The position numbers and the translations under genes were made by a program. A stretch of 64,000 bases of DNA. Origin: an uncultured Gammaproteobacteria bacterium (GTDB lineage: Bacteria > Patescibacteriota > Patescibacteriia > Magasanikbacterales > UBA922). The notes beneath the pieces were generated by a model. The model made no database searches and had not been told where the DNA came from. It worked only from the letters and a program-made list of their open reading frames with translations. Below, piece after piece: positions 19,915 through 55,041 of this stretch. The DNA lies in contig CAYSXR010000001.1 of the NCBI GenBank assembly GCA_964435035.1, positions 144,192 through 208,191 of the forward strand. The letters are read 5' to 3'. Each line of letters opens with the position of its first letter. The stretch's first letter is position 1.

Positions 19915-21360
19915 ATGTCTAAAAGAATAAAACAAACAAAAATCGTTGCAACCATTGGTCCAGCATGTGAAAGTATCGAAATTCTTGAGCGCATGGTACA
20001 TGCAGGTATGAATGTTGCTCGATTGAATTTTTCCCACGGTACTCATGAAAATCATGCGATGCTTATCAAAAATATTCGTGAAGTGGAAAAGCGCACGGGA
20101 GAGCCAGTGGCAATTCTACAGGATTTGCAAGGGCCAAAATTACGACTAGGGGAATTGCCGCCTGAGGGTATTGAAATAGAAAAAGGCACAGAAATTGTGT
20201 TTGCATATAATCCCGAAACATCGGTGGAAATTCCAATTGGTTTTAAAGAATTGTGTGAATTTATGAAACCAGGAGAGCGTATTTTACTCGATGATGGGAA
20301 ATGCGAAGCACGTGTCTTCCGAATTGAAAAAGAAAAAATTATCACCACTGTAGTGGTGGGTGGAAAGCTCACGTCACACAAGGGAATCAATGTGCCTGAT
20401 ACTGATTTGAAAACACTTAAAGTGTTAACTGAAAAAGATAAAGAAGATTTGAAATTTGGTGTAGAACACGGAGTTGATTTGGTCGCATTGTCTTTTGTGA
20501 TGGACGCACAAGATATTCTTGACGTGAAGTTTTTTATTACTGAAATCGAGCAATCAACAAAAAAAGTGGGAAATAATCCAATTCGTATTATTGCAAAAAT
20601 AGAAAAACACGAAGCAGTACAGAAAATTGAAAAAATTATTGATGTTGCTGATGGAATCATGGTGGCACGTGGAGATTTGGGTATTGAAATACCTGCAGAG
20701 GAAGTGCCGCTTATTCAGAAAAGAATTATTGATTTGGCGCGTGAGGGAGCAAAGCCTGTGATTGTAGCAACTCAAATGCTTGATTCTATGCAACATAACC
20801 CTCGTCCGACGCGTGCAGAGGTGTCAGATGTGTCAAATGCGGTAATCGATCATACTGATGCAGTAATGCTTTCAAATGAGACGGCGACAGGAGAATATCC
20901 AGTTGAGACCATTGAAACTATGGCTTCAATCATCCGATCTGCAGAAGAATCAGATTATGATGATGTGAGTGTGGCTACAAGCTCTAGTTCAAAACGAAAA
21001 AATATTGATACGACGATTAGTGGATTATCAAAATTAGTTGCCGAAGAAGTGGGTGCAACATTGATTTTGGCAGCATCACTTTCCGGGGACACAGGTCGTC
21101 TGATCTCAAAATATCGTCCAGAGCTCCCCATTGCTGTTGCTGCAAGCTCGGATCGGGTACTTCGTCAGCTCAATCTTTCATGGGGCGTGAGACCATTTAT
21201 TCTCGAGGAATGCAAAACTATCGAAGAGCTGATTGAACGCTCAATTCTGATACTCAAAGATAGAAAAATGGTAGAAAAAGAAGATCGGATTATTATCGTT
21301 GCTGGGGAGCCAGTTGGGCAAGCAGGACATGTAAATTTACTGGAAGTTCGTGAGGTATAG
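19915..21360 (+). CDS. pyk: Pyruvate kinase
   Basis: TKIVATIGPA N-terminus, the MVARGDLGIEIP active-site motif, and the C-terminal allosteric domain. 481 aa. Confidence 0.9.
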   Translation: MSKRIKQTKIVATIGPACESIEILERMVHAGMNVARLNFSHGTHENHAMLIKNIREVEKRTGEPVAILQDLQGPKLRLGELPPEGIEIEKGTEIVFAYNPETSVEIPIGFKELCEFMKPGERILLDDGKCEARVFRIEKEKIITTVVVGGKLTSHKGINVPDTDLKTLKVLTEKDKEDLKFGVEHGVDLVALSFVMDAQDILDVKFFITEIEQSTKKVGNNPIRIIAKIEKHEAVQKIEKIIDVADGIMVARGDLGIEIPAEEVPLIQKRIIDLAREGAKPVIVATQMLDSMQHNPRPTRAEVSDVSNAVIDHTDAVMLSNETATGEYPVETIETMASIIRSAEESDYDDVSVATSSSSKRKNIDTTISGLSKLVAEEVGATLILAASLSGDTGRLISKYRPELPIAVAASSDRVLRQLNLSWGVRPFILEECKTIEELIERSILILKDRKMVEKEDRIIIVAGEPVGQAGHVNLLEVREV

Positions 21361-27627: not shown

Positions 27628-29610
27628 ATGAGTAGTTTGATTAAAAAAATAATTTTCGCAGCTTTTCTTCTGTGGCTTGTGCCTTCAGTAATTTTTGCTT
27701 CAGATAGTAATGGTACAATCAATACAAGTCATAAATATGGATGGGGAGAAAACTTGGGTTGGATTAATTTTGCCCCAACTGATGGGTCGAGTAATTATCA
27801 CGGGCTTACCATTACTGATTCTGCTGTTACTGGCTATGCATGGTCAGAAGCCTATGGCTGGATTAATTTTGCTCCAAGTAATGGCGGAGTAACTAATAGC
27901 TGTACCGGACAACTTGGTGGTTGGGCATGGTCTACACAATTGGGCTGGATTTCCATGAGCGGAGTAACAATTGGATCGACCGGAGAATTTAATGGTGTAT
28001 CAGGTGGAACAACGCTTCCTTCGGGTAGAATTACCTTTGATTGTGATAATTGTGATGTGCGTACTGATTGGATTCCTTGCGCTGAGCGTGAAGAAGAAGG
28101 TGGTGGAGGCCCTCCGCCCACCTGTTCCAATGGCGCGTCAGATTATCCAACCTGTACACCACCCACTCCACCAACCTGTTCTAATGGTGCTTCGGATTAT
28201 CCTACCTGCACACCTCCTCCAGATCCCACCTGTTCCAATGGCGCATCAGATTATCCAACCTGTACACCACCCACTCCACCTCCAGATCCAGTCTGCTCTA
28301 ATGGCGCATCAGACTACCCAACTTGTACGCAGCCACCAGATCCCACCTGTTCCAATGGTGCATCAGACTACCCAGCTTGTACTGCCTCTACCGATGGGGG
28401 TGATGGAGGTACCGGAGAGGGTGATGGAGGTGCTAGTGATGGGGGAGAAAGTGAAGGGGCGGGGAGTAGTGGAGGCGGAGGTGGTGGTGTTGCCACAGAA
28501 ATAATTTCAAATATTACTGATTCAGTTGGGGTAGTGGCTGATGCAACAGTAGCTGTTTTGCAAGATGTAGCAGAAGTGCTGGTTACTATTCCCGGAGTAC
28601 AAACTGTAGTTAATGCGGCCCAAGTTGCTATAGAAAGAACAGAAAAAGTTATTAATAATCCTACGGTTGAAAAAATAGATGAAGCAGTTTCAACTCCAGT
28701 GCTCACAGCAACAGCTGTAGTAAACGTAGTAGTAGGTGGTGCAACATTATTTTCGCAGATTTTAATATTTCTCCGTTTATTGTTTTTGCAGCCCTTACTA
28801 TTATTATTCAAACGTCATAAACAAAAAACATGGGGAACGGTTTTCAATAGTCATACAAAGCAACCTCTTGATTTGGCAATGGTGCGTCTGGTGCATGGAG
28901 AAAATGACACAATTGTACGCACCCAGGTGACTGATGCCCAGGGTCGTTATTTTATGGCTGCAGGAAGTGGTACGTATATTTTGAAGACTACTAAAGAAGG
29001 TTTTGGTCCACATAGTGGAACGCAAGCTGAAGATTCGGTATATCCAAATTTGTATCGTGGAGAAAAATTGGAATTAGTGGACAGAGAAAGTGAACTTAAT
29101 TACAACATCCCGCTTGAACCAGTGTATGAGGCAAAGAGTACTGCTGATATAATCAAAGAATATTCGAGAAAAACATTCCAAAAAACGTTGAGTTTGATTG
29201 GTGCAATTGCAACGGTGGCATCACTGATTATTTCTCCAAACATTTGGATGGCTGCTCTTTTGGTAGTACATCTGCTTATCTATGTGGTCATGAAACGGTT
29301 TGCACAAAAAAAAGTAAAAGGTGATCGTGGAATAGTAGTGGATAGTAAAACTAAAAAACCAATGAAGAAGGTGGTGATCCGTGTGTTTGATAATGCATAC
29401 AATAAATTGGTGGACACTGCAATTACTGATAACAATGGGTGTTATGCGGTTCTAGTGGGTCCTAGTACTTATTATATTACTGCAGAAAAAGAAGGGTATG
29501 CTCCATATCAGTCTGATACGATTGATCTAACGAGTAAAAAGACTAATGGAATTGGAGGTGTTATTACAGAAAACTTCTCTTTGATGTCAGTTGATGAAAA
29601 GAAAAAGTAA
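27628..29610 (+). CDS. Surface protein (660 aa) with signal peptide, GWINFAP repeats, a 5x Cys-containing tandem peptide repeat, a Gly-rich spacer, and the same C-terminal anchor module as the upstream giant protein
   Basis: Long blocks of alignable identity to the C-terminus of the 21473-27466 product (e.g. ISSITDSV...VGGAGLLSQAMLYLRLIFSQPLLLL... versus ISNITDSV...VGGATLFSQILIFLRLLFLQPLLLL...). Confidence 0.8.
   Translation: MSSLIKKIIFAAFLLWLVPSVIFASDSNGTINTSHKYGWGENLGWINFAPTDGSSNYHGLTITDSAVTGYAWSEAYGWINFAPSNGGVTNSCTGQLGGWAWSTQLGWISMSGVTIGSTGEFNGVSGGTTLPSGRITFDCDNCDVRTDWIPCAEREEEGGGGPPPTCSNGASDYPTCTPPTPPTCSNGASDYPTCTPPPDPTCSNGASDYPTCTPPTPPPDPVCSNGASDYPTCTQPPDPTCSNGASDYPACTASTDGGDGGTGEGDGGASDGGESEGAGSSGGGGGGVATEIISNITDSVGVVADATVAVLQDVAEVLVTIPGVQTVVNAAQVAIERTEKVINNPTVEKIDEAVSTPVLTATAVVNVVVGGATLFSQILIFLRLLFLQPLLLLFKRHKQKTWGTVFNSHTKQPLDLAMVRLVHGENDTIVRTQVTDAQGRYFMAAGSGTYILKTTKEGFGPHSGTQAEDSVYPNLYRGEKLELVDRESELNYNIPLEPVYEAKSTADIIKEYSRKTFQKTLSLIGAIATVASLIISPNIWMAALLVVHLLIYVVMKRFAQKKVKGDRGIVVDSKTKKPMKKVVIRVFDNAYNKLVDTAITDNNGCYAVLVGPSTYYITAEKEGYAPYQSDTIDLTSKKTNGIGGVITENFSLMSVDEKKK
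28120..28392 (+). repeat. Coding tandem repeat, 5 copies of about 51-66 bp (peptide CSNGASDYPTCTPPTPP(P)DPT)
   Basis: Direct reading: acctgttccaatggcgcgtcagattatccaacctgtacacc... repeated five times with third-position variation. Confidence 0.7.
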
Positions 29611-38346: not shown

Positions 38347-38374
38347 AGTTTAAAGTGAAAGGTAAATTTAAGTT

Positions 38375-38647
38375 CTACAAAGTTGAGTTATTTTCTAGAT
38401 AATATCTTAATTGTTTTTTTAAAAACTTCCATCCTGATCCACTTTTAAGAAATTTTTCTCTTCCGGTAGCATCTTTTTTGTTTAGATACAGTTCTGCATA
38501 AATTAATTTCCATGGCATGTGTTTTTTTGTTGATATCGTTGAACCTTGATTATGTTGAATTATTCTACGTTTAATATCCGTAGTCCAGCCGATATAATGC
38601 CGATTTGGGTCTTTAATTGATTCAATAAAATAAACTACATAATACAT
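38375..38647 (-). CDS. GIY-YIG nuclease-domain protein (YhbQ/UPF0213-like, 90 aa)
   Basis: YVVYFIES...HYIGWTTDIKRRIIQHN motif set. AAGGAGG RBS with a 5-nt spacer. Confidence 0.75.
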   Translation of the reverse strand: MYYVVYFIESIKDPNRHYIGWTTDIKRRIIQHNQGSTISTKKHMPWKLIYAELYLNKKDATGREKFLKSGSGWKFLKKQLRYYLENNSTL

Positions 38648-38776
38648 ACTTCCTCCTTAAAAAAGTTGTATTGGCAGTGCCACGAGGGCGCGCTGTGCTT
38701 AGTAATGTTGCTGCCACGTAAAGTCGCTACGCTCCTACGTGGCACTCAAAGGCGCTCTGAGAATCGCGCCTTTTCG

Positions 38777-39173
38777 TGGAGATGCCGGGAGTCGAACCCG
38801 GGTCTAGACGGGTTACCCCGATACTCTACATGTGTATCGATGTTTGGTGTTTCGCATACGAATATGAAACATCGAAAAATATCGCATGCTATCGCATGAA
38901 TGGTTTCAACTAACTTCCATACGAACAAAGTTAGTCTACGCTCGAACTAGGGTTGGCACCGTGGATCCACCATCGAGTATCGTGGGTACGATGGTCGTAG
39001 TGATTTAGGCTACAACAGAAGCAAAGCTAGGCATACTGAAAGCTTTCGCTACAGTGTTTTTAGCTCGCTCGAACAAGTTTGCACTTGTGGAATTGCCTAT
39101 TTGTTACAGAGACAGGCACTCTGACATGCATATACAAGATAACAGAATCCATCTATCGAAGCCTGTCATCCCC
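38777..39173 (-). ncRNA. ssrA: tmRNA (SsrA), about 397 nt
   Basis: 5' GGGGAUGACAGGCUUCGAUAG... pairs with 3' ...GGUUCGACUCCCGGCAUCUCCA(CG), giving a 7-bp acceptor stem and a T-arm GGUUCGACUCC. It sits directly upstream of smpB. The tag reading frame is not securely assigned. Confidence 0.8.
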
Positions 39174-41016: not shown

Positions 41017-42069
41017 ATGTCCCATCCTCCACATCTACCACTTCCTGAAAAAGATTCTTCAATACAGGTGCAACAGCAGAGGATGTTTGTCATACTGGTA
41101 AATGTGGTATTATCTCTTGGTGCAGGGATAGTTGGGGCACTGAGTGTATTCGCGTGGATTATTCCTGGCGGGTATATAGATGGTGGAGTATTAGTTTCTA
41201 GAGGACAATCTGGATTCAATACTGCTGTATATAATGAGCCAGAAATTTCAGTAATACGAAAAGTGAAAAATGTTACTGCTGATGTATTTCAGAAAAGTCA
41301 GATTCTTCCGAATGGGTATTATGGAAGTGAGGCGCAAGTTGGTAGTGGTGTGATGCTTACCTCTAATGGGTGGGGGGTAGTGTATGCTCCACAATTAGTG
41401 AGTGCAGGAACAATTCCCGCACTCACCGTGCGAGATGCTCAGGGTGTGTGGTACACACCAGACATGGTAGTTGCAGATAAAGAAAATGGACTCGTGTATT
41501 TCAAACTCACGGGAAACGAATTTTATGTAACGACTTTTCCTGATTGGCGGACCCTTGCAACGGGAGGCGAAGTTTGGACTTTTACCGGACGTGAATGGAG
41601 AGGTCGAGTCTTAGGAGAAATGGAGCCTGTTTCAGATGAGATGGTGTTTGCTGCGGTAGACGAACACACTCGATTTAGGTTGTCTCCGGTGAGTACGATA
41701 AATACGGGCACCGTTATTTCAGATGCAGGAGATTTTATTGGATTTAGTGATGCAAATGGAGTATTGCATGATGCATGGATTATTGAATATTCAATTCCAA
41801 AATTACTCGAGTTGGGTGTAATCGAAAAAGCAGAGATAGAGTGGAAAGGTTCGATAGTCGAAGCAATGGAAGAGGGAAAATTAGTCAAAGGATTTTTGGT
41901 TGATCAACCAGGGAAAACAACGGTGAATGGGCTCAAGCGGGGGGATATTGTACGTGCAGTTAATGGGACTCCTGTTACTGAAATGAATCTCTATCGTCTA
42001 GTGAGGGAAACACCACTAAACGCGACGATATGGAGAGATGGGCAAGTTTTTGATATACTAGTACCGTAA
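41017..42069 (+). CDS. Membrane-anchored trypsin-fold/PDZ-like protein (HtrA-like, probably non-catalytic), 350 aa
   Basis: GSGVMLTSNGWGVV resembles the HtrA GSGfii..G.ilTN segment but lacks the His. The C-terminal GDIVRAVNGTPV...LVRETPLNATIWRDGQVFDILVP is PDZ-like. Confidence 0.45.
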   Translation: MSHPPHLPLPEKDSSIQVQQQRMFVILVNVVLSLGAGIVGALSVFAWIIPGGYIDGGVLVSRGQSGFNTAVYNEPEISVIRKVKNVTADVFQKSQILPNGYYGSEAQVGSGVMLTSNGWGVVYAPQLVSAGTIPALTVRDAQGVWYTPDMVVADKENGLVYFKLTGNEFYVTTFPDWRTLATGGEVWTFTGREWRGRVLGEMEPVSDEMVFAAVDEHTRFRLSPVSTINTGTVISDAGDFIGFSDANGVLHDAWIIEYSIPKLLELGVIEKAEIEWKGSIVEAMEEGKLVKGFLVDQPGKTTVNGLKRGDIVRAVNGTPVTEMNLYRLVRETPLNATIWRDGQVFDILVP

Positions 42070-42070
42070 G

Positions 42071-42184
42071 TAAATTCAAAACTTAAATCTCAAAATTCAA
42101 AACTGGAATTCAAAATTCCGGGAGATGAAAGTTTTAAGATTTAAGTTATAGTTTTGAACTTTGAGTTTTACATTTTGAATTTAA
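42071..42184. repeat. AT-rich long hairpin element (arms about 50 bp built from AAATTCAAAACTTAAA / TTTGAGTTTTAC units), immediately after the stop codon
   Basis: taaattcaaaacttaaatctcaaaattcaaaactggaattcaaaattccggg | ...gttttaagatttaagttatagttttgaactttgagttttacattttgaattt. Related copies at 51671-51728 and 61796-61843. Confidence 0.55.
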
Positions 42185-42220
42185 TATATTATTTCCATCA
42201 CTATTTAAACTTAGTCTACT

Positions 42221-46416: not shown

Positions 46417-46445
46417 TTGACAAAAAGGTATAAATATGCTATAGT
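46417..46445 (+). promoter_or_regulatory. Strong sigma70-type promoter TTGACA-17-TATAGT (cassette type P: cTTGACAaaaaggtataaatatgcTATAGTac)
   Basis: Perfect -35 and a 17-bp spacer. Near-identical cassettes occur at 49347-49375 and 63780-63808. It lies about 210 nt upstream of the first high-GC gene. Confidence 0.55.
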
Positions 46446-46655: not shown

Positions 46656-48104
46656 ATGATTGACCGCAACAAGAAGAGCAACAAGAAGAGCACGCCCGTG
46701 AAGGGCGGCGCTGCGGCGAACCCGCAGGCGATGGCAACCGTGGCGTCTCACAAGGACGACACGGCTCAGATCGATGTGGTGGTCGAGACCAATCCCGAGG
46801 CCGACAAGGTCGAGGGTGAGGTCAAGGCCGATGAAGAGGCGAAGGTCGAAGAGACCGTCGCCACCGCCCCGACCGAGAACGTCGAGAAGAGCGAGGAGCC
46901 GGCCGTTGTGGTCGACCCCGAGCCCGAGCTCGAGCAGAAGCGGAACTTCCGTAAGGAAGACCTCCGCCTCCGGTACAACGACAACCCGCAGGTGCTGCTC
47001 ACCTCCGCGGATCTCAGCGAAGAGGACAAGGTCCTCATCGGCGAGATCGCGAGCGAGCAGAACCAGGTCGTCCGCGACTATGCCGCGCTGGCACAGGAGC
47101 TGACCGACGAGAAGGACCAGCTCGAGCAGAAGCTCGACGCGACCAACTCCAAGCTGGGGAACGTCACCAACCTCATCGCGACCACGGTCAAGGAGACCGT
47201 GGGACAGGTGGACAAGGAGACGTCGGCCTTGATCGAAGGTCTGAAGATCGAGATCGAGGGCGTCATCGGCAAGGGTAACGGCGTGAAGAACGCCGTCACG
47301 AAGATCGGGGACGATGTCAACAAGGACATCGGCTCGCTCAAGGGTCAGGTCAACGCCAACGCCAAGTCGGTCAACGACAAGGTCGATGGGATGGCCGCGA
47401 TGCTCGGGAAGATCGACGAGAAGATCTCCGAGATCAAGTCCCCGCCGCCCCCGCAGCAGCCGCCGGCTCAGTCCAGCACCACCCCGTCCTCCGGATCCTC
47501 CGGGTGGCCGTGGGTCGTGGCCGTGGGCATCTTGCTCGCGGCCGTGATCGCGGTCTTCCTCCTGAACAAGGATGTGAAGATCGAGGTCCAGGTGCAGCAG
47601 CCGGCGGTGAACACCGTGAAGGGTGTGGTGCCGCCGGTGGTGGACAACGCTCTCGGGGTGACCTCGCAGCAGGTGACCCCGGGTGGACCGGGGAATCCGA
47701 TCGTGCCCACGGTGGTCGGTGCCACGTCCGAGGATCCCTGCAAGGGGAAGGTCGGTGGGGAGCTCGGGTCGTGTGTCCTTCAGCTGGAGAAGTTCCGGCC
47801 GAAGGGGTTCACTGATGCGCACTGGAACACGGTCGTCGAGACCTTCCAGAACGTCATCATGGTCCCCTTGAGCGTTCCGTTCAAGGACATCAAGCACCAC
47901 GACAAGGCCATCGAGCACAACATGAGGAAAGACGCGGCACTGCAGGCGTGCGTCGACGCATACGTCTTGAAGACGGATGATGTCGAGTCGAACGTCCGGT
48001 GTCAGCGGGCGGTCGATTGTCTGTTCACTTCGGTGGACGAGGCAGCACAGTGCTACATGACGCATACGCGCTCGATCACGGGCGTTTTGGTCACTGTCAA
48101 CTGA
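46656..48104 (+). CDS. Island gene 1: bitopic membrane protein (482 aa) with a cytoplasmic 11-mer-repeat/coiled-coil N-domain, one TM, and an extracytoplasmic Cys-containing C-domain
   Basis: Protein-like composition on the + strand versus R/L/D/G-rich junk on the antisense strand. TM WPWVVAVGILLAAVIAVFLL preceded by a PPPPQQPPAQ linker. Confidence 0.65.
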   Translation: MIDRNKKSNKKSTPVKGGAAANPQAMATVASHKDDTAQIDVVVETNPEADKVEGEVKADEEAKVEETVATAPTENVEKSEEPAVVVDPEPELEQKRNFRKEDLRLRYNDNPQVLLTSADLSEEDKVLIGEIASEQNQVVRDYAALAQELTDEKDQLEQKLDATNSKLGNVTNLIATTVKETVGQVDKETSALIEGLKIEIEGVIGKGNGVKNAVTKIGDDVNKDIGSLKGQVNANAKSVNDKVDGMAAMLGKIDEKISEIKSPPPPQQPPAQSSTTPSSGSSGWPWVVAVGILLAAVIAVFLLNKDVKIEVQVQQPAVNTVKGVVPPVVDNALGVTSQQVTPGGPGNPIVPTVVGATSEDPCKGKVGGELGSCVLQLEKFRPKGFTDAHWNTVVETFQNVIMVPLSVPFKDIKHHDKAIEHNMRKDAALQACVDAYVLKTDDVESNVRCQRAVDCLFTSVDEAAQCYMTHTRSITGVLVTVN

Positions 48105-48159
48105 ACCTCAACCCAACTAGTCCGACCTCCCTCGGGAGGTCGGACACAGGAGAACAGAC

Positions 48160-49095
48160 ATGAAGCAGCTCGTCGCGAAGATCGTGGTTTATTACATCGT
48201 ACTTCTCTCGGCGTCGGCCTTCGGCTCGACGCCGAACCCCGGTGACCAGTTCGACCTGATCCAGGGAGGGATCCCGGCGAAGGTCGAGGTCACGCAGCAG
48301 GAGATCAAGGCGATGGACACGTCCATCGACCAGCTCCTGAAGCGCACCGGCGGTCTCCTCAAGAAGGACGCCGAGCTCAAGAAGGAGCTCGAGGACCTCA
48401 AGAAGGAGCTCGAGGACCTCAAGAGCAAGCTCGACAAGGTGGTGAAGCCGGGTGATCTCACGGTCATCCGAGTGGATCTGGGAAGGTTGTGGACGCAAGT
48501 CAACAACCATGGACAGCGCCTCACCGAGCTCGAGCAGGACGTCGAAGATCTGAAGAGGAGCGACAAGGCTCAGGACGATCGACTCGGTGATCACGACCAG
48601 AAAATCGAGGACATCAACAAGCGCCTCGATCGAGGTCTCGGAGTGAAGTTCGGCATCGGAGCCTATGGCGTCTACGGGACGCAAGGCTCGATCAACGGTG
48701 GAGCTTCGGCTCGGCTGAGGATCCCGCTGTCCGGTGGATGGCAAGCGATCGTCAATGGCGGAGTCGGCGGCAACCATCAGGGAGCTTCAGGATTCGCCGA
48801 TCTGTCGGTCGGCTACCAGTTCGCGAGCGGCATCTACCTGGGGGCAACCCTCGGTATCGACGCCAACTGCGACGGTATGTGCACCAGGCTCCTCACGGAG
48901 ATCTGGGGCGCAGGTCCCGACATCGGCTACCTGTCCGACGATGGACTCTTCATCCGGGCTCGTGTGCTCTTCGGGAGCGAGTGGATCAAGGGTCCGACGA
49001 TGCAGATCGAGTACCCGGATCGTACGGTCTTCAAGACCGACGAGTCCCGGGAGTTCGGCATCTCGGCTTTGATCCAGCTCGGTCACGAGTTCTAG
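48160..49095 (+). CDS. Island gene 2: secreted protein (311 aa) with signal peptide, a KKELEDLKKELEDLK coiled-coil, and a Gly-rich amphipathic beta C-terminal region ending in Phe (possible outer-membrane beta-barrel)
   Basis: Signal peptide LLSASAFG; alternating hydrophobic pattern GVKFGIGAYGVYG...ADLSVGYQFASGIYLGATLGIDA...; terminal ...LGHEF. Confidence 0.6.
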   Translation: MKQLVAKIVVYYIVLLSASAFGSTPNPGDQFDLIQGGIPAKVEVTQQEIKAMDTSIDQLLKRTGGLLKKDAELKKELEDLKKELEDLKSKLDKVVKPGDLTVIRVDLGRLWTQVNNHGQRLTELEQDVEDLKRSDKAQDDRLGDHDQKIEDINKRLDRGLGVKFGIGAYGVYGTQGSINGGASARLRIPLSGGWQAIVNGGVGGNHQGASGFADLSVGYQFASGIYLGATLGIDANCDGMCTRLLTEIWGAGPDIGYLSDDGLFIRARVLFGSEWIKGPTMQIEYPDRTVFKTDESREFGISALIQLGHEF

Positions 49096-49346
49096 ACTTC
49101 AAGATTCGGGGAGTGTCTCTACTCCCCGGACCCCTCACCTCGCCGACTTCAAGGCAGAAGGGATAAGACAATGAGACAAACACTCGAGTAAACGGCGTGG
49201 TCGCACAACGCGGCCCCCAATACTGGAGCATGGGCGATATTTCGAAAGAAATGTCGCCCCTCGCACAGCGTATATCAGTCTCTGGTATGCGATGACGAGA
49301 AAAGCATCTCACGTAAATCCCGACTAAATCGGGACACGTGACAAGC

Positions 49347-49375
49347 TTGACAAACGAGAGTATTTATGCTATACT
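49347..49375 (+). promoter_or_regulatory. Promoter cassette type P (cTTGACAaacgagagtatttatgcTATACTaag) within an AT-rich patch inside the island
   Basis: TTGACA-17-TATACT, highly similar to 46417 and 63780. Confidence 0.5.
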
Positions 49376-49500
49376 AAGCTGTTACAAAATAAAGAAGTGC
49401 CATGGGAAATCTCGATGTAGTCGGGGTATCTATGGTAGATCGTCATGCACTGCATGGTGGTCCATTGAACCTTACAATATATGCGAAATGTATAAAAAGC

Positions 49501-49544
49501 TTGAAAGGCTAGAAAGGCCGGAAAGGCTTGAAATGCTAGAGAAC
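49501..49544 (+). repeat. Tandem 9-mer direct repeats (ttgaaaggc tagaaaggc cggaaaggc ttgaaatgc tagagaac) in the leader of island gene 3
   Basis: Direct reading; about 5 units with core GAAAGGC. Confidence 0.5.
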
Positions 49545-49685
49545 GTATCTTGTGACGTGAAGAAAGAAATTTTCAATAAGAATTTTTTCTTAGCGTCACG
49601 AGGAGTTCTCAGGCGTGAAAACTTCTCGTGTGGTACACGAGGAAGCAACAACAAAACCCCGATTGAATCGGGGAGGAGAAGAGTC

Positions 49686-51452
49686 ATGAAGAAGTTCAAC
49701 AAGTTCCTGTTCGTCGTCATGTTCATCTCGTTCGTCGCGGCCATCACGGGCTGCGCCGATCACGGTGGCGAGACGGTCGTCGTCAAGGGTGACGATGGGG
49801 AGAGCGTCAAGCTCTGCCCCGAGGAGCATCAGTGCTCCTCGGCCGAGTTCTGCAACTCGCAGGGTCTCTGCGTCATCCCCGGTGCCAACGGCACCAACGG
49901 CGAGGACTTCGAGCGATGCTCGAATAGTCGTGGTGACTGTGTCGGTAACGAGCTCTGCAACTCGCAGGGCGTGTGTGTGCTCGAAGGTCCGCAAGGGCCG
50001 GCGGGGGAGTCCTGTACCGTGTCGACGAAGGTCGACGGGTGCTTCTTCCTCTACTGTGGCGCAAGCGTCACGGAGATCTGCGACGGCGAGGACGGTGTGT
50101 CCTGCACGGTCGCAGGGCAGCCGGACGGCAGCGCTCAGGTCGAGTGCTCGGACGGTTCGTTCGCGACCATCCTCCCCGGACAAGACGGCGAGGACGGTCT
50201 CAACGGCACGAGCTGCACGGCCTCGACGGTCAAAGGTTGCCTCGTGGTGACCTGCGGAACGCAGTCGACGGAGATCTGCCCGGAGGATCTTCCGGATCCC
50301 GAGCCGGTCGACGGCTGCCAGAAGGACTCGGACTGCACGGACGGCAGCGAGTGCACCAACGACATCTGCGATCTCAACACCGGCACCTGCCGGTACGTGT
50401 CGCAGGTGTGTGATGACGGCGTCGCCTGCACCAACGACTGGTGTGACACGAACGGCTACTGCCGTTCGACCGCGGACAATGATCAGTGCAGCGGCGGCGA
50501 CTTCTGCTTGCCGACCGGTTACTGGTTTTGGTCCTCGGCGGTGGGTTCTGAGGAACTCGCTGACGGAGGCTGTTACGAGTGCCGCTGGGACTCTGATTGT
50601 GCCGACGGCGACGCGTGTACGGTCGACACCTGCGACGCGGGTGTTTGCAAGAAGGAAACGCGCGAGTGCCCCACGGGTGCGACGTGCGTCGAGTACTCGA
50701 GCAACTACTACGACGACTCGGAGTGGAACTACGTGTGCCAGGACAATCCGTCGTGCAGCAACAACAGCCAGTGCGACGACGGCAAGTACTGGACGACGGA
50801 TGCGTGCGTGGCCGGGGAGTGTGTCTACACCCAGGTGTCGTGCAACGACAACAACGCATGCACCGTGGACACGGTGAACTCGAGTGGGCAGTGCACCTAC
50901 GCCCAGATCTCGTGCGACGATGGCAAATCCGCCACGGTCGACACGTGCTCTGCGAATACGGGGTGCGTACACACGCCGGTGAACACCGGCTGCGAGCACG
51001 ATCTCGATTGCGATGACGTCGACGGTACGACCACGGACCTGTGCGAGGACAACGGGAGCTGTACACATACTCCCAATGCCCAGTGCAAGTCCCTGACGGT
51101 CAAGGTCGGCTGGGCCATCCTGTGGTCGCGCGGTCCCGAGATCGGAACCACCAATGTCCCGATGGGCAACTGGCGTAGCTGCGAGGAAGACGAGGCGGAG
51201 AACTGCCGTACCATGTCGTGGTGCGGTGACGACATCGTGGAGTTCAATGTTCAGCAGATGCCGAACGTGGCAGGTGCCGACTGGCTCGTGAAGAACGAGA
51301 AAGGCGACAGCCCTTGCACGTCGAACGCAGATGCGACCTTGAACTACACGCCCGCTGATCTCTTCGTCGGGGCGACGCCGGTGCAGAAGGGCTGTTCGCT
51401 CTTCTGCGACCCGAACGGGTACACCAACTACACCTGCGATTCCGCGGAGTAG
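49686..51452 (+). CDS. Island gene 3: Cys-rich repeat lipoprotein (588 aa; start at ATG 49686 with a GGAGG RBS)
   Basis: Lipoprotein signal MKKFNKFLFVVMFISFVAAITGC. Many C-x-x-D-x-D-C / C-T-N-D-x-C-D repeats (e.g. CQKDSDCTDGSECTNDICDLNTGTCRY, CDDGVACTNDWCDTNGYC). The ORF track's upstream extension from 49338 is AT-rich non-coding leader. Confidence 0.7.
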   Translation: MKKFNKFLFVVMFISFVAAITGCADHGGETVVVKGDDGESVKLCPEEHQCSSAEFCNSQGLCVIPGANGTNGEDFERCSNSRGDCVGNELCNSQGVCVLEGPQGPAGESCTVSTKVDGCFFLYCGASVTEICDGEDGVSCTVAGQPDGSAQVECSDGSFATILPGQDGEDGLNGTSCTASTVKGCLVVTCGTQSTEICPEDLPDPEPVDGCQKDSDCTDGSECTNDICDLNTGTCRYVSQVCDDGVACTNDWCDTNGYCRSTADNDQCSGGDFCLPTGYWFWSSAVGSEELADGGCYECRWDSDCADGDACTVDTCDAGVCKKETRECPTGATCVEYSSNYYDDSEWNYVCQDNPSCSNNSQCDDGKYWTTDACVAGECVYTQVSCNDNNACTVDTVNSSGQCTYAQISCDDGKSATVDTCSANTGCVHTPVNTGCEHDLDCDDVDGTTTDLCEDNGSCTHTPNAQCKSLTVKVGWAILWSRGPEIGTTNVPMGNWRSCEEDEAENCRTMSWCGDDIVEFNVQQMPNVAGADWLVKNEKGDSPCTSNADATLNYTPADLFVGATPVQKGCSLFCDPNGYTNYTCDSAE

Positions 51453-51670
51453 TCGTACCCACAAACATTTCGTGTAAAAGCTTTGAGTAGCCTAGCTACC
51501 AGACTCAAAGTTCAATCAACGTAGCGGGAGGGGGCACAAGCGTTCATCTGAATTGCGCAAGCGATTCAGTGACGAGTGCCTCCCTCCCATTCCAACATAT
51601 CTTTATCAAAATTCAGAACTCAGATTACAGTGAGAGACTAGTGAGTATTGGTAGAGAGATGTGGGGATGG

Positions 51671-51728
51671 AAAATTCAAAACTTAAAACTTAAAACTCAA
51701 AATTTAGATTTAAGTTGTGAGTTATTAC
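51671..51728. repeat. Copy of the AT-rich AAAACTTAAAACTCAAA hairpin element inside the high-GC island
   Basis: aaaattcaaaacttaaaacttaaaactcaaaatttagatttaagttgtgagttattac. Same unit as 42071-42184. Confidence 0.5.
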
Positions 51729-51795
51729 AAACCCTTTCCATCATTATGATGGTTTCAATTCCCCTCAACCGCGACGACAGAAATGTCACGCGCGG

Positions 51796-51821
51796 AAAAA
51801 ACCCGCGCATGCGGGTTTTTT
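51796..51821. terminator. Rho-independent terminator (cccgcgcatgcggg stem flanked by an A-run and a T-run; potentially bidirectional)
   Basis: ggaaaaaacccgcgcatgcgggttttttaaa. Confidence 0.6.
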
Positions 51822-51913
51822 AAATTCCATTACCTCGGGTATATCGTATAATGATGGTATATCTATGGTAGAGGAATTCTACACGCCAGTTCACAAAAAC
51901 CAGGAGGGGACAC

Positions 51914-52651
51914 ATGTTGGGTATGACGTTTCGTTTGTTTGTTTTCTGTCTCACCGTGTTCACCGCCGCATGCATCGAGGATATGCGGCGGGAGGAAGCG
52001 TCCATGGTCCAGGTCGATACGTCGACTGGCATCATGGATATGGTGGAGGAAGTCAAAGACGTACCAGATTCACGGGTCCGTGATCGGTATGATATCGAAT
52101 TTCCTCCTACAGCCGACGAGTGTGTCGTCGATGAATTCATCGCAGAGGGAAGCCCTTGCGATGATGGCGATGCATGCACGATCGATGTCTGTATCCAGGG
52201 CATGTGTCGTAATCGAGCTATCGACTGCGACGACGGAAATCCCTGGACGGATGACGAGTGCATCGTCGACACTGGGGCGTGCTCCAGTGTACATCGGGTG
52301 ACTCATTTCACCGTTCGCGCGGAGCGTCCGGGAAAGGTGAAGCTTTGGTATGGGAATCACACCGAGCCAGAGACCTATCCCATGAACTCGAGCTTCGAGA
52401 TCCAGAAGATGGATCTCTGCGTCGAGAACCGTGTGCTCACGCTCGCGGTAGAGGACGAAGAGTTCCCGGGAACCTACTGGGGTTGTAACCCTGGCCTTCC
52501 TTCGAAGAGGGAACTCGCAGTCGAGATCGACGGGGTGGACACGCCCGGTTATTTCGCTGCGGATCTCGGATGGGAGGTGCCCAACTCTGCGTGTGGTGGG
52601 AAGGGAGAGGGTGACCTCTACTTCTTGCGGGCGCAACTCGCATGTGACTGA
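51914..52651 (+). CDS. Island gene 4: small Cys-rich lipoprotein (245 aa) sharing the CTxDxC motif and a C-terminal CNPGLPSK domain with genes 3 and 5
   Basis: Signal/lipobox FRLFVFCLTVFTAAC. The segment CDDGDACTIDVCIQGMCRNRAIDCDDGNPWTDDEC. C-terminal GCNPGLPSKRELAVEIDGV aligns with LDCNPGFPSKSTLTVMVNGV of gene 5. CAGGAGGGG RBS. Confidence 0.65.
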   Translation: MLGMTFRLFVFCLTVFTAACIEDMRREEASMVQVDTSTGIMDMVEEVKDVPDSRVRDRYDIEFPPTADECVVDEFIAEGSPCDDGDACTIDVCIQGMCRNRAIDCDDGNPWTDDECIVDTGACSSVHRVTHFTVRAERPGKVKLWYGNHTEPETYPMNSSFEIQKMDLCVENRVLTLAVEDEEFPGTYWGCNPGLPSKRELAVEIDGVDTPGYFAADLGWEVPNSACGGKGEGDLYFLRAQLACD

Positions 52652-52739
52652 TGACCGGGTGTCTCGCGAAGGATAGGATGGCGTATACGCTATGCTGTCC
52701 ACCTTCGCGAGCACCACTAATTCAACAAATAGAATTATA

Positions 52740-52768
52740 TTGACAAAATACTCTTTTCCTGATATGTT
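52740..52768 (+). promoter_or_regulatory. Candidate promoter TTGACA-17-TATGTT for island gene 5
   Basis: attgacaaaatactcttttcctgatatgttg. Confidence 0.4.
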
Positions 52769-52878
52769 GATACGATTGTATCTACGCATATCGGATATCT
52801 AGAGAGGTATCTGGTATGCGCCACTGGAGAATCATTCTCAAGTGTGTATGTTCATTATAATCACATAAGTTTTTTGTT

Positions 52879-52946
52879 CAGCTAGAGGATGGGTGCAGAT
52901 AGAGGTATATGTAACATATCTTGTATCGATAGCCACCCTCTAGCTG
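52879..52946 (+). promoter_or_regulatory. Nested palindromes in the gene-5 leader (outer 13-bp arms cagctagaggatg/caccctctagctg enclosing atatgtaacatat)
   Basis: Direct reading. A second nested set (gtctcgcgaagg ... gcgtatacgc ... ccttcgcgagc) lies at 52660-52712, just after the gene-4 stop. Confidence 0.45.
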
Positions 52947-52998
52947 AGACACAGTGTCACTGCTGGAGTTCAACGGCCTCACAACGGAGGAAGGCCAA

Positions 52999-55041
52999 AT
53001 GCGTCTGAAGAACAACAACAACCGGATGTTCATCATCACGGTTGCCCTCGCCATGGGGTTCATGGCGGCGTGCACGGAACACGGCGGCGACGAGCCGATC
53101 GTGGTCGTGATGAAGGCGGACCTCGACCTCGACGAGGTCCCCAACAACGTCGACAACTGCCCGGGGGACAACAACCCCGATCAGTTGGACACCGACGGCG
53201 ACGGCATGGGCGATGCGTGCGACAACGACGTCGACGGCGACGGGGTCTTGAACCCCGCCGACAACTGCCCCGACAACTTCAACCCCGACCAGGCGAACCT
53301 CGACAAGGTCCTGGCCGACAGCGGCAACGTCACCGTGGTCGCGGATCTCTTCGGAGACGTCTGCGACAACGACGACGACGGCGACGTGGTCTGCGACCCC
53401 TGGCTCGGCGTGGACGGGTGGGAAGAATTCCATCCCGGTCAGGGCGAGACGTGTCAGGGCGAGGACAACTGTCCCGACGTCGCCAACGCCGACCAGGCGA
53501 ACCTCGACAAGGACTTCGAGGGCGACGTCTGCGACAACGACGTCGACGGCGACGGCGACCTCAACGGCGCAGACAACTGCCCGCTCGTGACCAACGCCGA
53601 CCAGGCAAACCTGGATCGGGACGACTGGGGCGACGCCTGCGACACCGACGACGACAACGACAGCTTCTGCGACGAAGCTGCCCCCGTCTCGATGCCGCGA
53701 AATGCGCCCGCGATGCCCCTCTGCGAGGGCGAGGACAACTGCCCCCGCTTCAAGAACGCGGGACAGGAAGACATGGACGAGGACGGCATGGGCGACGTCT
53801 GCGACGACGACTGCGACGGGGACCTCTACCCCGAAGCGTCGCCCTGGGATTTCCCCAACCTGTCGTGCTTCGTGTATTGCAATCCGGAAGGTCCGGGAAC
53901 CGAGTGCGACGACGCGAACACGTGCACCACGGACACCTGCAACGGGCAGGGCGTTTGCGAGTACGTGTTCACGCAGTCCGAGACGTGCGAATGCGTCTTG
54001 GACTCCGACTGCGAGCCGACCGACGCCTGCGTCACCGAGATGGCGTGCGTGGAAAACACGTGCGTCGAGACCGGATGGAAGGTCCTGACCGACGGGGACA
54101 ACTGCACCATCGACACCTGTGATCCCTCGACCGGCGTGGTCACCCACGTCGAGAAGGACTGTGGTGGGGACCTCTGCGGAGGAGGCCTCTCGTGTAACCG
54201 CATGACCGGAGAGTGCAGCACACCCGTGCCGCAAATTCCGATCAACGACAGCAACGCCTGCACCACCGACGCGTGCGATCCCGAGACCGGCGTGGTCACC
54301 CACGTCGCGATCGTCTGCGACGATGGGAACGCATGCAACGGCACCGAGACGTGCAACCCGGCTTCCGGGTGCGTCGCGGGTACGCCGCTCACGTGCGATG
54401 ACGGAAGCGTCTGCACGATCGACAGTTGTTCGGCAAACACCTGCCAACACGTGGCGGTGACGACGAACGACAACAACATGTGCACCACCGACACCTGCGA
54501 TCCCGAGATGGGGGTGCAGCACACGGCGGTGGTGTGCAACGACGTGAACTCCAACACCACCGACACCTGCGATCCGGCGACGGGTTGCGTGCACACGCCG
54601 ACGGGGAACTGCACGGTCAACGCGGATTGCAACGACAGCAATCCCCTGACCTACGACACCTGCGTCGCGCTCGTCTGCCAACATGTGGAAGGTGTCCGCG
54701 TGCAGGTCTCGTCGACCGACACGTCGGAGACCTGGCAGGTCAATTTCTACTACAACGGTACGACGATCTCCGGCAACCTGCCCTTCGACGGGACCTTGCC
54801 GAAGACGCTCGCATGCAGCTGGGGCGCCGACATCGCCGTCAACCGTCCGAGCACGAACTTGTTCTTGGACTGCAACCCGGGGTTCCCCTCGAAGTCCACC
54901 CTGACCGTCATGGTCAATGGTGTCACGAAGGCGAACGACTTCCAGGTTCGTTCGCAGGCATGCGACGGCGCTCCGCCGGGCAACCTGTGGCTCTCCGACG
55001 AGAGCGGTGACAACGACCTGGGATGCCCCGCGGCACCCTAG
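52999..55041 (+). CDS. Island gene 5: lipoprotein (681 aa) with at least 5 thrombospondin type-3 Ca-binding repeats followed by CTTDxCDPxTG Cys-rich repeats and the shared C-terminal domain
   Basis: Signal/lipobox MFIITVALAMGFMAAC. DNCPGDNNPDQLDTDGDGMGDACDNDVDGDG-type TSP3 repeats (five DNCP motifs). Repeated CTTDTCDPETGVVTHV/CDDG units. RBS GGAGGAAGG upstream of ATG 52999. Confidence 0.75.
   Translation: MRLKNNNNRMFIITVALAMGFMAACTEHGGDEPIVVVMKADLDLDEVPNNVDNCPGDNNPDQLDTDGDGMGDACDNDVDGDGVLNPADNCPDNFNPDQANLDKVLADSGNVTVVADLFGDVCDNDDDGDVVCDPWLGVDGWEEFHPGQGETCQGEDNCPDVANADQANLDKDFEGDVCDNDVDGDGDLNGADNCPLVTNADQANLDRDDWGDACDTDDDNDSFCDEAAPVSMPRNAPAMPLCEGEDNCPRFKNAGQEDMDEDGMGDVCDDDCDGDLYPEASPWDFPNLSCFVYCNPEGPGTECDDANTCTTDTCNGQGVCEYVFTQSETCECVLDSDCEPTDACVTEMACVENTCVETGWKVLTDGDNCTIDTCDPSTGVVTHVEKDCGGDLCGGGLSCNRMTGECSTPVPQIPINDSNACTTDACDPETGVVTHVAIVCDDGNACNGTETCNPASGCVAGTPLTCDDGSVCTIDSCSANTCQHVAVTTNDNNMCTTDTCDPEMGVQHTAVVCNDVNSNTTDTCDPATGCVHTPTGNCTVNADCNDSNPLTYDTCVALVCQHVEGVRVQVSSTDTSETWQVNFYYNGTTISGNLPFDGTLPKTLACSWGADIAVNRPSTNLFLDCNPGFPSKSTLTVMVNGVTKANDFQVRSQACDGAPPGNLWLSDESGDNDLGCPAAP

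Follow-up and report, generated by a model that had tools for sequence, protein, structure and literature searches.

The 64,000-nucleotide stretch of DNA analysed here (hereafter the window; positions 144,192 to 208,191 of contig CAYSXR010000001.1, assembly GCA_964435035.1) contains a long AT-rich hairpin at 42071-42183, between the gene at 41017-42069 and a Wzz-like gene. We think it probable, though far from certain, that this hairpin is a typical member of a dispersed palindromic repeat family that spreads at the DNA level, and that its appearance as a hairpin in the transcript is incidental. This interpretation builds on family membership, on gain and loss of copies between relatives, on slippage of the repeat unit, on insertions into coding sequences and on the absence of RNA-type signatures, all of which were observed.

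The hairpin is an imperfect inverted repeat of two 44-nt arms, 82% complementary, around a 25-nt loop. It lies directly behind the 41017-42069 gene, as the preliminary description of the window had placed it: the left arm begins 1 nt past the TAA stop codon (42067-42069) and the right arm ends 37 nt ahead of the ATG (42221) of the Wzz-like gene. Both arms are made up of heptamers, AAAAYTY on the left and the complement on the right (unit AAAACTY/RAGTTTT), for which Tandem Repeats Finder (TRF) detects a period of 7 and its multiple 21; the 16-nt repeat units given in that description must be replaced by these. RNA folding of 42071-42183 yields -30.1 kcal/mol, compared to -18.7 ± 3.0 kcal/mol in dinucleotide shuffles (z = -3.8; 0/200 shuffles as good), and DNA folding yields -21.7 kcal/mol (z = -4.7). 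Two other independent assemblies of the same population contain the element base for base.

The two related copies that had been described at 51.7 and 61.8 kb were both recovered (Table 1). The first is a truncated hairpin that folds only marginally (z = -2.2); the second, described as a half copy at about 61796-61843, is a right arm alone that forms no hairpin (z = +0.4) and ends 10 nt ahead of the ATG (61855) of a DUF11 surface-protein gene. TRF reports period-7 stretches at 42072-42118, 42152-42182, 51678-51706 and 61794-61841. The pattern (AAAAYTY)x3 with at most 2 mismatches matches 15 times in the window where 0.07 matches are expected, at 42071-42183 (both arms), 51671-51711, 61795-61841 and 7949-7968. 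A profile made of right arms of unrelated metagenome copies recovers 42130-42182 (E = 2e-10), 42071-42119 on the minus strand (E = 1e-7), 61795-61844 (E = 5e-9), 7943-7976 (E = 1e-4) and 51672-51702 (E = 4e-4), and the right arm at 42.1 kb can be aligned column by column with 20 unrelated copies. Because of this pattern excess, the profile hits and the identical 21-mer AGTTTTGAACTTTGAGTTTTA that the 42.1 and 61.8 kb copies have in common, the similarity among copies is positional and more than A/T richness, in line with what had been proposed. The window holds three intergenic copies for about 45 genes, and all three adjoin cell-surface genes.

Table 1. Parts of the hairpin at 42.1 kb and further copies of the repeat in the window (strand as reported)
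Feature	Position	Strand	Description
Left (A-rich) arm	42071-42114	+	About 6 heptamers: AAATTCA AAACTTA AATCTCA AAATTCA AAACTGG ...; from repeat periodicity and pattern search
Loop	42115-42139		Potential small internal stem GGAATTC...GAATTCC
Right (T-rich) arm	42140-42183	+	Holds family core GTTATAGTTTTGAACTTTGAGTTTT
Truncated copy	51671-51728	+	Five A-rich units (51671-51706) and short inverted arm with AAGTTGTGAG landmark; AT-rich spacer of GC-rich island
Right-arm-only copy	61794-61844	+	T-rich on + strand, about 7 units; partner arm missing
Degenerate A-rich array in pheT coding sequence	7943-7976	+	A-rich strand is sense; encodes SKLKSQKSKLE

The 20-mer AGTTTTGAACTTTGAGTTTT belongs to the right arm and occurs in two of the window's copies; it is matched exactly in at least 120 contigs of metagenomes from groundwater, sediment and activated sludge. 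The metagenome sample was picked via this one exact 20-mer, and the matches listed comprise 101 non-redundant contexts. Among them are 39 strict hairpins with medians of 48 nt for the arms, 38 Watson-Crick pairs, 25 nt for the loop and 121 nt for the span; by the same measures the window hairpin has 44, 36, 25 and 113. The full element, about 100-120 nt long, combines two arrays of a 7-nt unit (AAAACTC/GAGTTTT type) in inverted orientation with a conserved non-periodic landmark, AAAACCACAAC / GTTGTGGTTTT; many of the contigs carry such a ~120-nt hairpin, conserved at specific positions that include a CCACAAC/GTTGTGG landmark. Alignment of copies including the one at 42.1 kb gives positional conservation in both arms that goes beyond periodicity (left arm AACTCAAAACTCAAAnnTCAAAACCACAACTTAAAACTTAAAAC, right arm GTTTTGAGTTTTGAGTTGTGGTTTTGAGTTTTGAACTTTGAGTTTTGAG), and a recurrent asymmetry between the arms, AAATCTC opposite GAACTTT, is found in the window copy likewise. 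With the right-arm profile, 46 further elements that lack the 20-mer were found in the same contigs, and 30 contigs carry at least two elements. Tandem arrays of at least 3 copies number about 335 in the copy-bearing contigs; 219 of these have period 7, with dozens of unit sequences. One activated-sludge contig of 10.4 kb (L014) carries seven arrays of the family, several of them beside start codons of consecutive same-strand genes.

DNA around pheT of four other Magasanikbacteria served as a sample independent of the repeat. One of these contigs, L127, contains two full copies, which fill the LemA-M48 and pheS-pheT spacers. L131 has the same hairpin architecture built from another heptamer, ACAATTA: inverted ACAATTA/TTGTTAA arrays (21040-21185) fill a 140-nt spacer between co-directional genes. 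The window itself comes from a genome of Candidatus Magasanikbacteria, to which the named proteins that best match its PheT belong (85-89% identity); more distant ones are labelled 'Patescibacteria group'. One TrmD-bearing contig of the family belongs to another Patescibacteria lineage, with named relatives in Taylorbacteria and Zambryskibacteria. The family occurs chiefly in uncultivated Patescibacteria (candidate phyla radiation, CPR), yet it is not strictly confined to CPR, because one copy lies in a 64%-GC contig beside an acyltransferase/AMP-binding gene.

Copies sit close to gene ends or inside genes. In 23 of 38 cases the base of the hairpin is -15 to +16 nt from a stop codon, and in 12 of 27 the stem has a start codon within ~18 nt; the flanking genes are co-directional in 18 contexts, convergent in 7 and divergent in 1. 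Every reading frame of the T-rich strand contains TGA, and therefore the A-rich strand is the sense strand inside genes, as found in 40/40 cases of a first set and in 50/51 single arrays. Single A-rich arrays lie in frame in protein loops. They are deep in conserved proteins in 25 of the 101 contexts, always with the A-rich strand as sense (aminoacyl-tRNA synthetases, CCA-adding enzyme, TrmD, topoisomerase I and GuaA), and 32 of 105 single arrays (~30%) are deep in open reading frames (ORFs). All three frames are used by the coding copies, giving KTQSSKL, NSKFKTQ and LKVQNSK. Among TrmD proteins that are 70-88% identical, the loop between VIKAIEKA and KIIFFSPSGKQ ranges from ~6 to ~45 residues and carries translated-heptamer peptides. 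In the window, the array at 7943-7976 forms a length-variable loop of PheT between HAFD and I.VRRA; the relative P0007 reads SKLKTQNSKL in this loop, which is the exact translation of (AAAACTC)n, and in L127 and L129 this loop position of pheT likewise contains heptamer arrays according to TRF. Such loops of essential enzymes are hypervariable in length between close relatives (TrmD P0121-P0240, PheT P0001-P0120), and further exact translated-heptamer peptides occur in the TrmD and PheT loops, namely PNSKFQI from (CCAAATT)n and KVKSQKS from (AAAGTCA)n.

Comparison with relatives shows that copies come and go. An independently assembled sister genome (L003, CAYUTO010000002.1), whose protein for the gene upstream of the hairpin is 93% identical, is collinear with the window from 30860 to 51824 with 87-93% identity in the flanks, and the family profile has no match across these 21 kb. 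At 51.7 kb the flanks of both genomes align cleanly and a heptamer hairpin of ~57 nt is present in the window alone; at 42.1 kb L003 has a hairpin of different units, AAGATTR/CAATCTT. The TAA of pheS and the ATG of pheT, which only 2-3 nt separate in the window, L131 and L133, have a 121-nt hairpin exactly between them in L127. Copies turn over between species that are ~88% identical in DNA, and new ones enter ready-made where a few bases separate a stop codon from the following start codon. Once present, arrays grow and shrink by whole 7-nt units: in two cases a locus differs in length between assemblies by exactly 7 nt, and in another by 35 nt, equal to five units. The elements had initially been suggested to be mobile or to be recombination scars. 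Mobility is supported indirectly by the presence and absence of the 51.7 kb copy, by the different heptamer of L003 at the 42.1 kb site and by the pheS-pheT insertion of L127. For recombination scars we found no evidence, as the flanks are collinear at every site compared. The L003 record is titled 'uncultured Gammaproteobacteria' even though it has 87-93% DNA identity to the window, whose PheT is Magasanikbacteria-like, and this label is probably a taxonomic error.

We infer that the family spreads at the DNA level by some trans-acting mechanism. An element would enter as a ready-made unit and subsequently change by unit slippage and point mutation, and it would be tolerated only at intergenic sites or in A-rich sense orientation in genes, because of the TGA codons in all frames of the T-rich strand. 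At 42.1 kb it would then be neutral, probably with no dedicated role. Its consequence would be a predicted long, A-U-rich and mismatched hairpin in the intercistronic RNA from the upstream gene to the Wzz-like gene, which could act at most as a leaky terminator or as a site of RNA processing or stability. For the window, this gives no pointer to a dedicated regulator of the adjoining polysaccharide genes.

Several observations weigh against this interpretation. Firstly, no recurrent transposase-like or mobility ORF was found among the 589 clustered ORFs of the copy-bearing contigs, which comprise housekeeping families only. Secondly, no clear target-site duplication was seen at the two sites for which an empty and a filled state could be compared (51.7 kb and pheS-pheT), where the AT-rich junctions are ambiguous. 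Thirdly, the 20-mer has no match in 2.9 million viral contigs. All three assemblies of the population have the identical copy at 42.1 kb, so that no slippage is visible at this locus, and the left flank at 51671-51677 (GAAAATT) is already unit-like, which makes birth in situ by slippage conceivable there. Hairpins adjoin gene 3' ends above chance, and a terminator-like role would predict the same. Lastly, selection by the 20-mer inflates the likeness of right arms and weakens the covariation test given below. A phage as vector of the repeat was rejected, as the viral contigs gave 0 matches. A BLAST search of plasmids gave no match either, which carries no information since the low-complexity filter probably masked the query.

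A more far-reaching proposal, which we put forward only tentatively, is that these repeats are an undescribed class of non-autonomous mobile element that is widespread in Patescibacteria. Each arm would offer a series of 7-nt units recognised by a trans-acting enzyme of the host or of a parasite, or else by a single-strand binder whose footprint is 7 nt; insertion would be precise between stop and start codons; and in-frame single arrays in essential genes would make 7-residue-periodic loops (KTQSSKL, PNSKFQI, KVKSQKS) in PheT, TrmD, aminoacyl-tRNA synthetases and topoisomerase I. The finding of the repeat family as a whole would, if confirmed, mean that repeats colonise gaps of 2-3 nt and loops of essential enzymes even in the small, tightly packed genomes of Patescibacteria, and that an active mechanism of genome and protein-loop evolution operates in a major uncultivated lineage. 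It would also be a practical nuisance in the form of contig breaks, over-extended ORF calls and spurious 'hypothetical' peptides. The family would be useful as a marker too, because a copy inside a compositionally odd island would date how long that island has resided in such a genome. A further question would be why 7-nt units of differing sequence recur in cyanobacteria, Beggiatoaceae, Bacteroidetes and now Patescibacteria.

The family has traits in common with several known repeats, but for each of them it fails a feature that defines it. The short tandemly repeated repetitive (STRR) sequences of cyanobacteria have CCCCAGT, TTGGTCA and CAACAGT as canonical units. Mazel et al. reportedly described them in 1990 as heptamers of heterocystous cyanobacteria that form direct arrays. 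Like STRR sequences, the present repeats consist of 7-nt tandem units (TRF period 7), are dispersed and mostly intergenic, fall into many unit families in each genome and are not known to have a function. They differ from STRR in phylum and in unit sequence (AAAAYTY/RAGTTTT), and in that two inverted arrays make up a ~120-nt hairpin with a non-periodic landmark. The palindromic elements of Rickettsia, said to have been described by Ogata et al. in 2000, are reportedly ~100-150 nt long and inserted in frame into housekeeping genes of a reduced genome, where they add peptide segments. Size, palindromic structure and in-frame occurrence in housekeeping genes are alike; in Rickettsia, however, the whole palindrome is translated, whereas here this holds for single A-rich arrays only, the T-rich arm being stop-rich, and there is no sequence similarity.

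The TAACTGA heptamers known from Beggiatoaceae, Cyanobacteria and Bacteroidetes form direct repeats in nearly all cases, and only one indirect repeat has been reported (PMC4679880). They resemble the present family in having stop codons in all frames on one strand while the other strand is translatable and found inside ORFs, in their position near start codons at the expected ribosome-binding site, in being mixed with other heptamers and in being missing from orthologous spacers of close relatives (PMC4679880). The differences are that inverted arrays are common in the present family and that an orientation bias was not found. [quoted passage not shown] REPs, however, are 20-40 nt long, GC-rich, non-periodic and linked to REP-associated tyrosine transposases (RAYT), whereas the hairpin described here spans 113 nt with AT-rich periodic arms of 44 nt; MITEs are marked by terminal inverted repeats, by target-site duplications and by a parent insertion sequence (PMC3184786, PMC2229807), and here no clear instance of these was seen. 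Borg tandem repeats are similarly A-biased and fast-evolving and generate repeat peptides, but their units in ORFs are divisible by three and nearly every one is unique, in contrast to a 7-nt unit with a translated period of 21 nt and one unit family across genomes (PMC9879509). A literature search with the repeat sequences, and with heptamer or tandem repeats combined with Patescibacteria or CPR, gave no published description of the repeat, which is no proof of novelty, and the sample accessions are named in none of the papers searched. An integron attC site was rejected, as the ends misfit the RYYYAAC...GTTRRRY core sites and the neighbours (pheS-pheT, LemA-M48, Wzz) are no cassettes. CRISPR and TIGR-array readings were rejected on the period of 7/21 nt, the gene context and the absence of associated genes.

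Alternatively, the hairpin could be a selected RNA element, such as a factor-independent bidirectional terminator or insulator, an mRNA 3'-end stabiliser or an RNase III site, with an A-rich 5' arm and a U-rich 3' arm alike on both strands and a sequence free to change as long as the stem persists. We consider this unlikely, and keep it in view because of the association with 3' ends. The position just behind the stop codon is that of an intrinsic terminator, in the family as a whole the base is within ~16 nt of a stop codon in the cases counted above, with convergent contexts exceeding divergent ones by 7 to 1, and T-rich sequence follows the stem in the family consensus. Moreover, the sister species has a hairpin of entirely different sequence at the same spot. 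However, the stem at 42.1 kb is almost all A-T, with few G-C pairs, followed by the tail AATATATTATTT, and the site was not called in a terminator scan whose minimum was 3 G-C pairs and 5 T in 8, with a loop of 3-8 nt. The lineage already has canonical terminators with a GC stem and a T-run, at 51787-51822 in the window and at 3721-3785 in L003. In the family hairpins, G-U pairs on the transcribed strand are not in excess of A-C mismatches (84 vs 94). Element-specific covariation of the arms was not seen either: arms are no better complementary to their own partner than to foreign arms (0.505 vs 0.467), in a test blunted by the 20-mer ascertainment, and the RNAalifold consensus is weak (-2.2 kcal/mol, covariation term -0.13), weakened by unit register shifts in the alignment. 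No Rfam 15 family matches the hairpin at gathering score, the best permissive hit being a chance-level microRNA precursor with 29 bits against a threshold of 101.7; in the whole window, only a transfer-messenger RNA (tmRNA) and two tRNAs exceed the gathering score. Where a start codon follows the stem within ~18 nt there is no room for a promoter. Between pheS and pheT of L127 the start codon is 12 nt past the stem, and insertion inside this essential pair argues against strong or efficient termination. Lastly, with three intergenic copies for the genes of the window, the element is sporadic.

It is less probable still that the heptamer arrays serve as a binding platform or as a tunable spacer. 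They would then be tandem 7-nt sites for a single-strand binder with an oligonucleotide/oligosaccharide-binding (OB) fold, for example a cold-shock protein or S1, or TTGA units would act as movable -35 boxes, with slippage by 7 nt causing phase variation of adjoining surface-polysaccharide or surface-protein genes. We retain this option because the period of 7 nt is constant across unrelated units (AAAACTC, AAGATTG, ACAATTA and many others). The occupation of one heptamer by one cold-shock protein and heptamer repeats at ribosome-binding positions have been discussed (PMC4679880), which counts in its favour. Arrays also often abut start codons, as at 61844 ahead of ATG 61855, unit-number polymorphism is present, all three intergenic window copies have cell-surface genes beside them, and a promoter-like TTGAGT-18-TATATT overlaps the right arm (42161-42190). 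However, the latter matches at only 9/12 positions and lacks conservation in L003, few hairpins lie between divergent genes, where outward promoters would help, many copies adjoin housekeeping genes, and the array is identical in the three assemblies of the population. An apparent bias of single arrays towards T-rich sense (29 vs 5) was rejected as an artefact of ORF calling: 15 A-rich-sense arrays, each no more than 30 codons from a called start, had been counted as parts of ORFs whose calls were over-extended, and the corrected counts upstream of start codons are 17 T-rich-sense vs ~19 A-rich-sense, i.e. no bias.

We give about as little credence, or slightly less, to an origin without mobility, by which an AT-rich seed would expand on the spot into an array through replication slippage and template switching would give the inverted arm, so that resemblance between copies would reflect a shared mutational bias. 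The unit-like flank GAAAATT at 51671-51677, where L003 reads GAAAATTGCAAG, fits with this, as do the exact +/-7-nt variants and the many unrelated heptamer families within the same genomes. On the other hand, the CCACAAC/GTTGTGG landmark and the AAATCTC/GAACTTT asymmetry recur in unrelated contexts, and the complete 121-nt hairpin of L127 lies in a pheS-pheT spacer of 2-3 nt that offers no seed. A chance match of low-complexity A/T sequence or an assembly artefact, which the AT-rich, repetitive sequence and the 61.8 kb copy that folds no better than shuffles might suggest, is refuted by the pattern excess, the folding at 42.1 kb, the identical sequence in two further independent assemblies, profile E-values down to 2e-10 and the presence of the family in more than 100 independent metagenome assemblies.

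The truncated copy at 51.7 kb lies in a GC-rich island (46656-55041) of five co-directional genes with a GC content at third codon positions (GC3) of 0.65-0.88, compared to 0.29-0.42 in the neighbours, whereas GC1 and GC2 are similar. The encoded proteins are rich in Cys, Asp and Gly and have Dicty_CTDC and TSP_3 repeats. The island spacers are AT-rich as in the rest of the genome, with near-consensus promoter-like sites at 46417 (TTGACA-17-TATAGT, upstream TG), 49347 and 52740. The island genes are syntenic in L003 at 71-76% identity, compared to 87-93% in the flanks. Being syntenic in this independently assembled genome, the island contains no chimeric join and predates the split of the two species. 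The preliminary description had likewise concluded that the island is not an assembly chimera. That conclusion holds by way of the synteny; the repeat at 51.7 kb, from which it had been drawn, is consistent with it without being the strongest evidence. The repeat is also not 'host-specific', given its presence in at least 120 metagenome contigs, which include another Patescibacteria lineage and the 64%-GC contig. The 51.7 kb copy is a later insertion into the island that is specific to the window lineage, and being absent from L003 it therefore shows only a later residence of the island in a repeat-spreading genome. The surrounding sequence at 51585-51676 and 51759-51824 is non-coding and ~95% and 89% conserved with L003, compared to 71-76% in the island genes, with the heptamer copy in its middle. 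This stretch ends in the canonical bidirectional terminator at 51787-51822 and is a candidate small RNA or leader; it has no Rfam match.

Besides the genes mentioned, the window encodes PheST, IF3, SmpB, pyruvate kinase and a polysaccharide locus with Wzz, GT4 and Wzy genes. Two small GIY-YIG genes, at 61288-61566 (+; Pfam E = 4e-14) and at 38375-38647 (-; Pfam E = 8e-13), resemble, together with nearby palindromes, another kind of mobile mini-element. The first gene has a long palindrome on either side (61100-61251 and ~61586-61720), both with the motif CGAGGRATCTTTCCT, and the right-arm-only heptamer copy lies just downstream. One of the arrays on L014 adjoins a GTCATTCTGAGCG...GAAGAATCCC palindrome of the same kind. 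The second gene is, together with its GC-rich hairpins (region 38348-38771), absent from L003, which has 87 nt there instead. The tmRNA is located at 38776-39173 (- strand) and has an unusually long predicted tag peptide, ANLFERAKNTVAKAFSMPSFASVVA; in L003, inverted arrays of a 9-nt unit (AAAGTCTAT) lie directly past the tmRNA 3' end, at 7701-7774. Lastly, a 54-nt tandem repeat with ~4.9 copies (CTCCACCCACCTGTTCCAATGGCG...) is found at 28112-28382, inside the ORF at 27628-29610.

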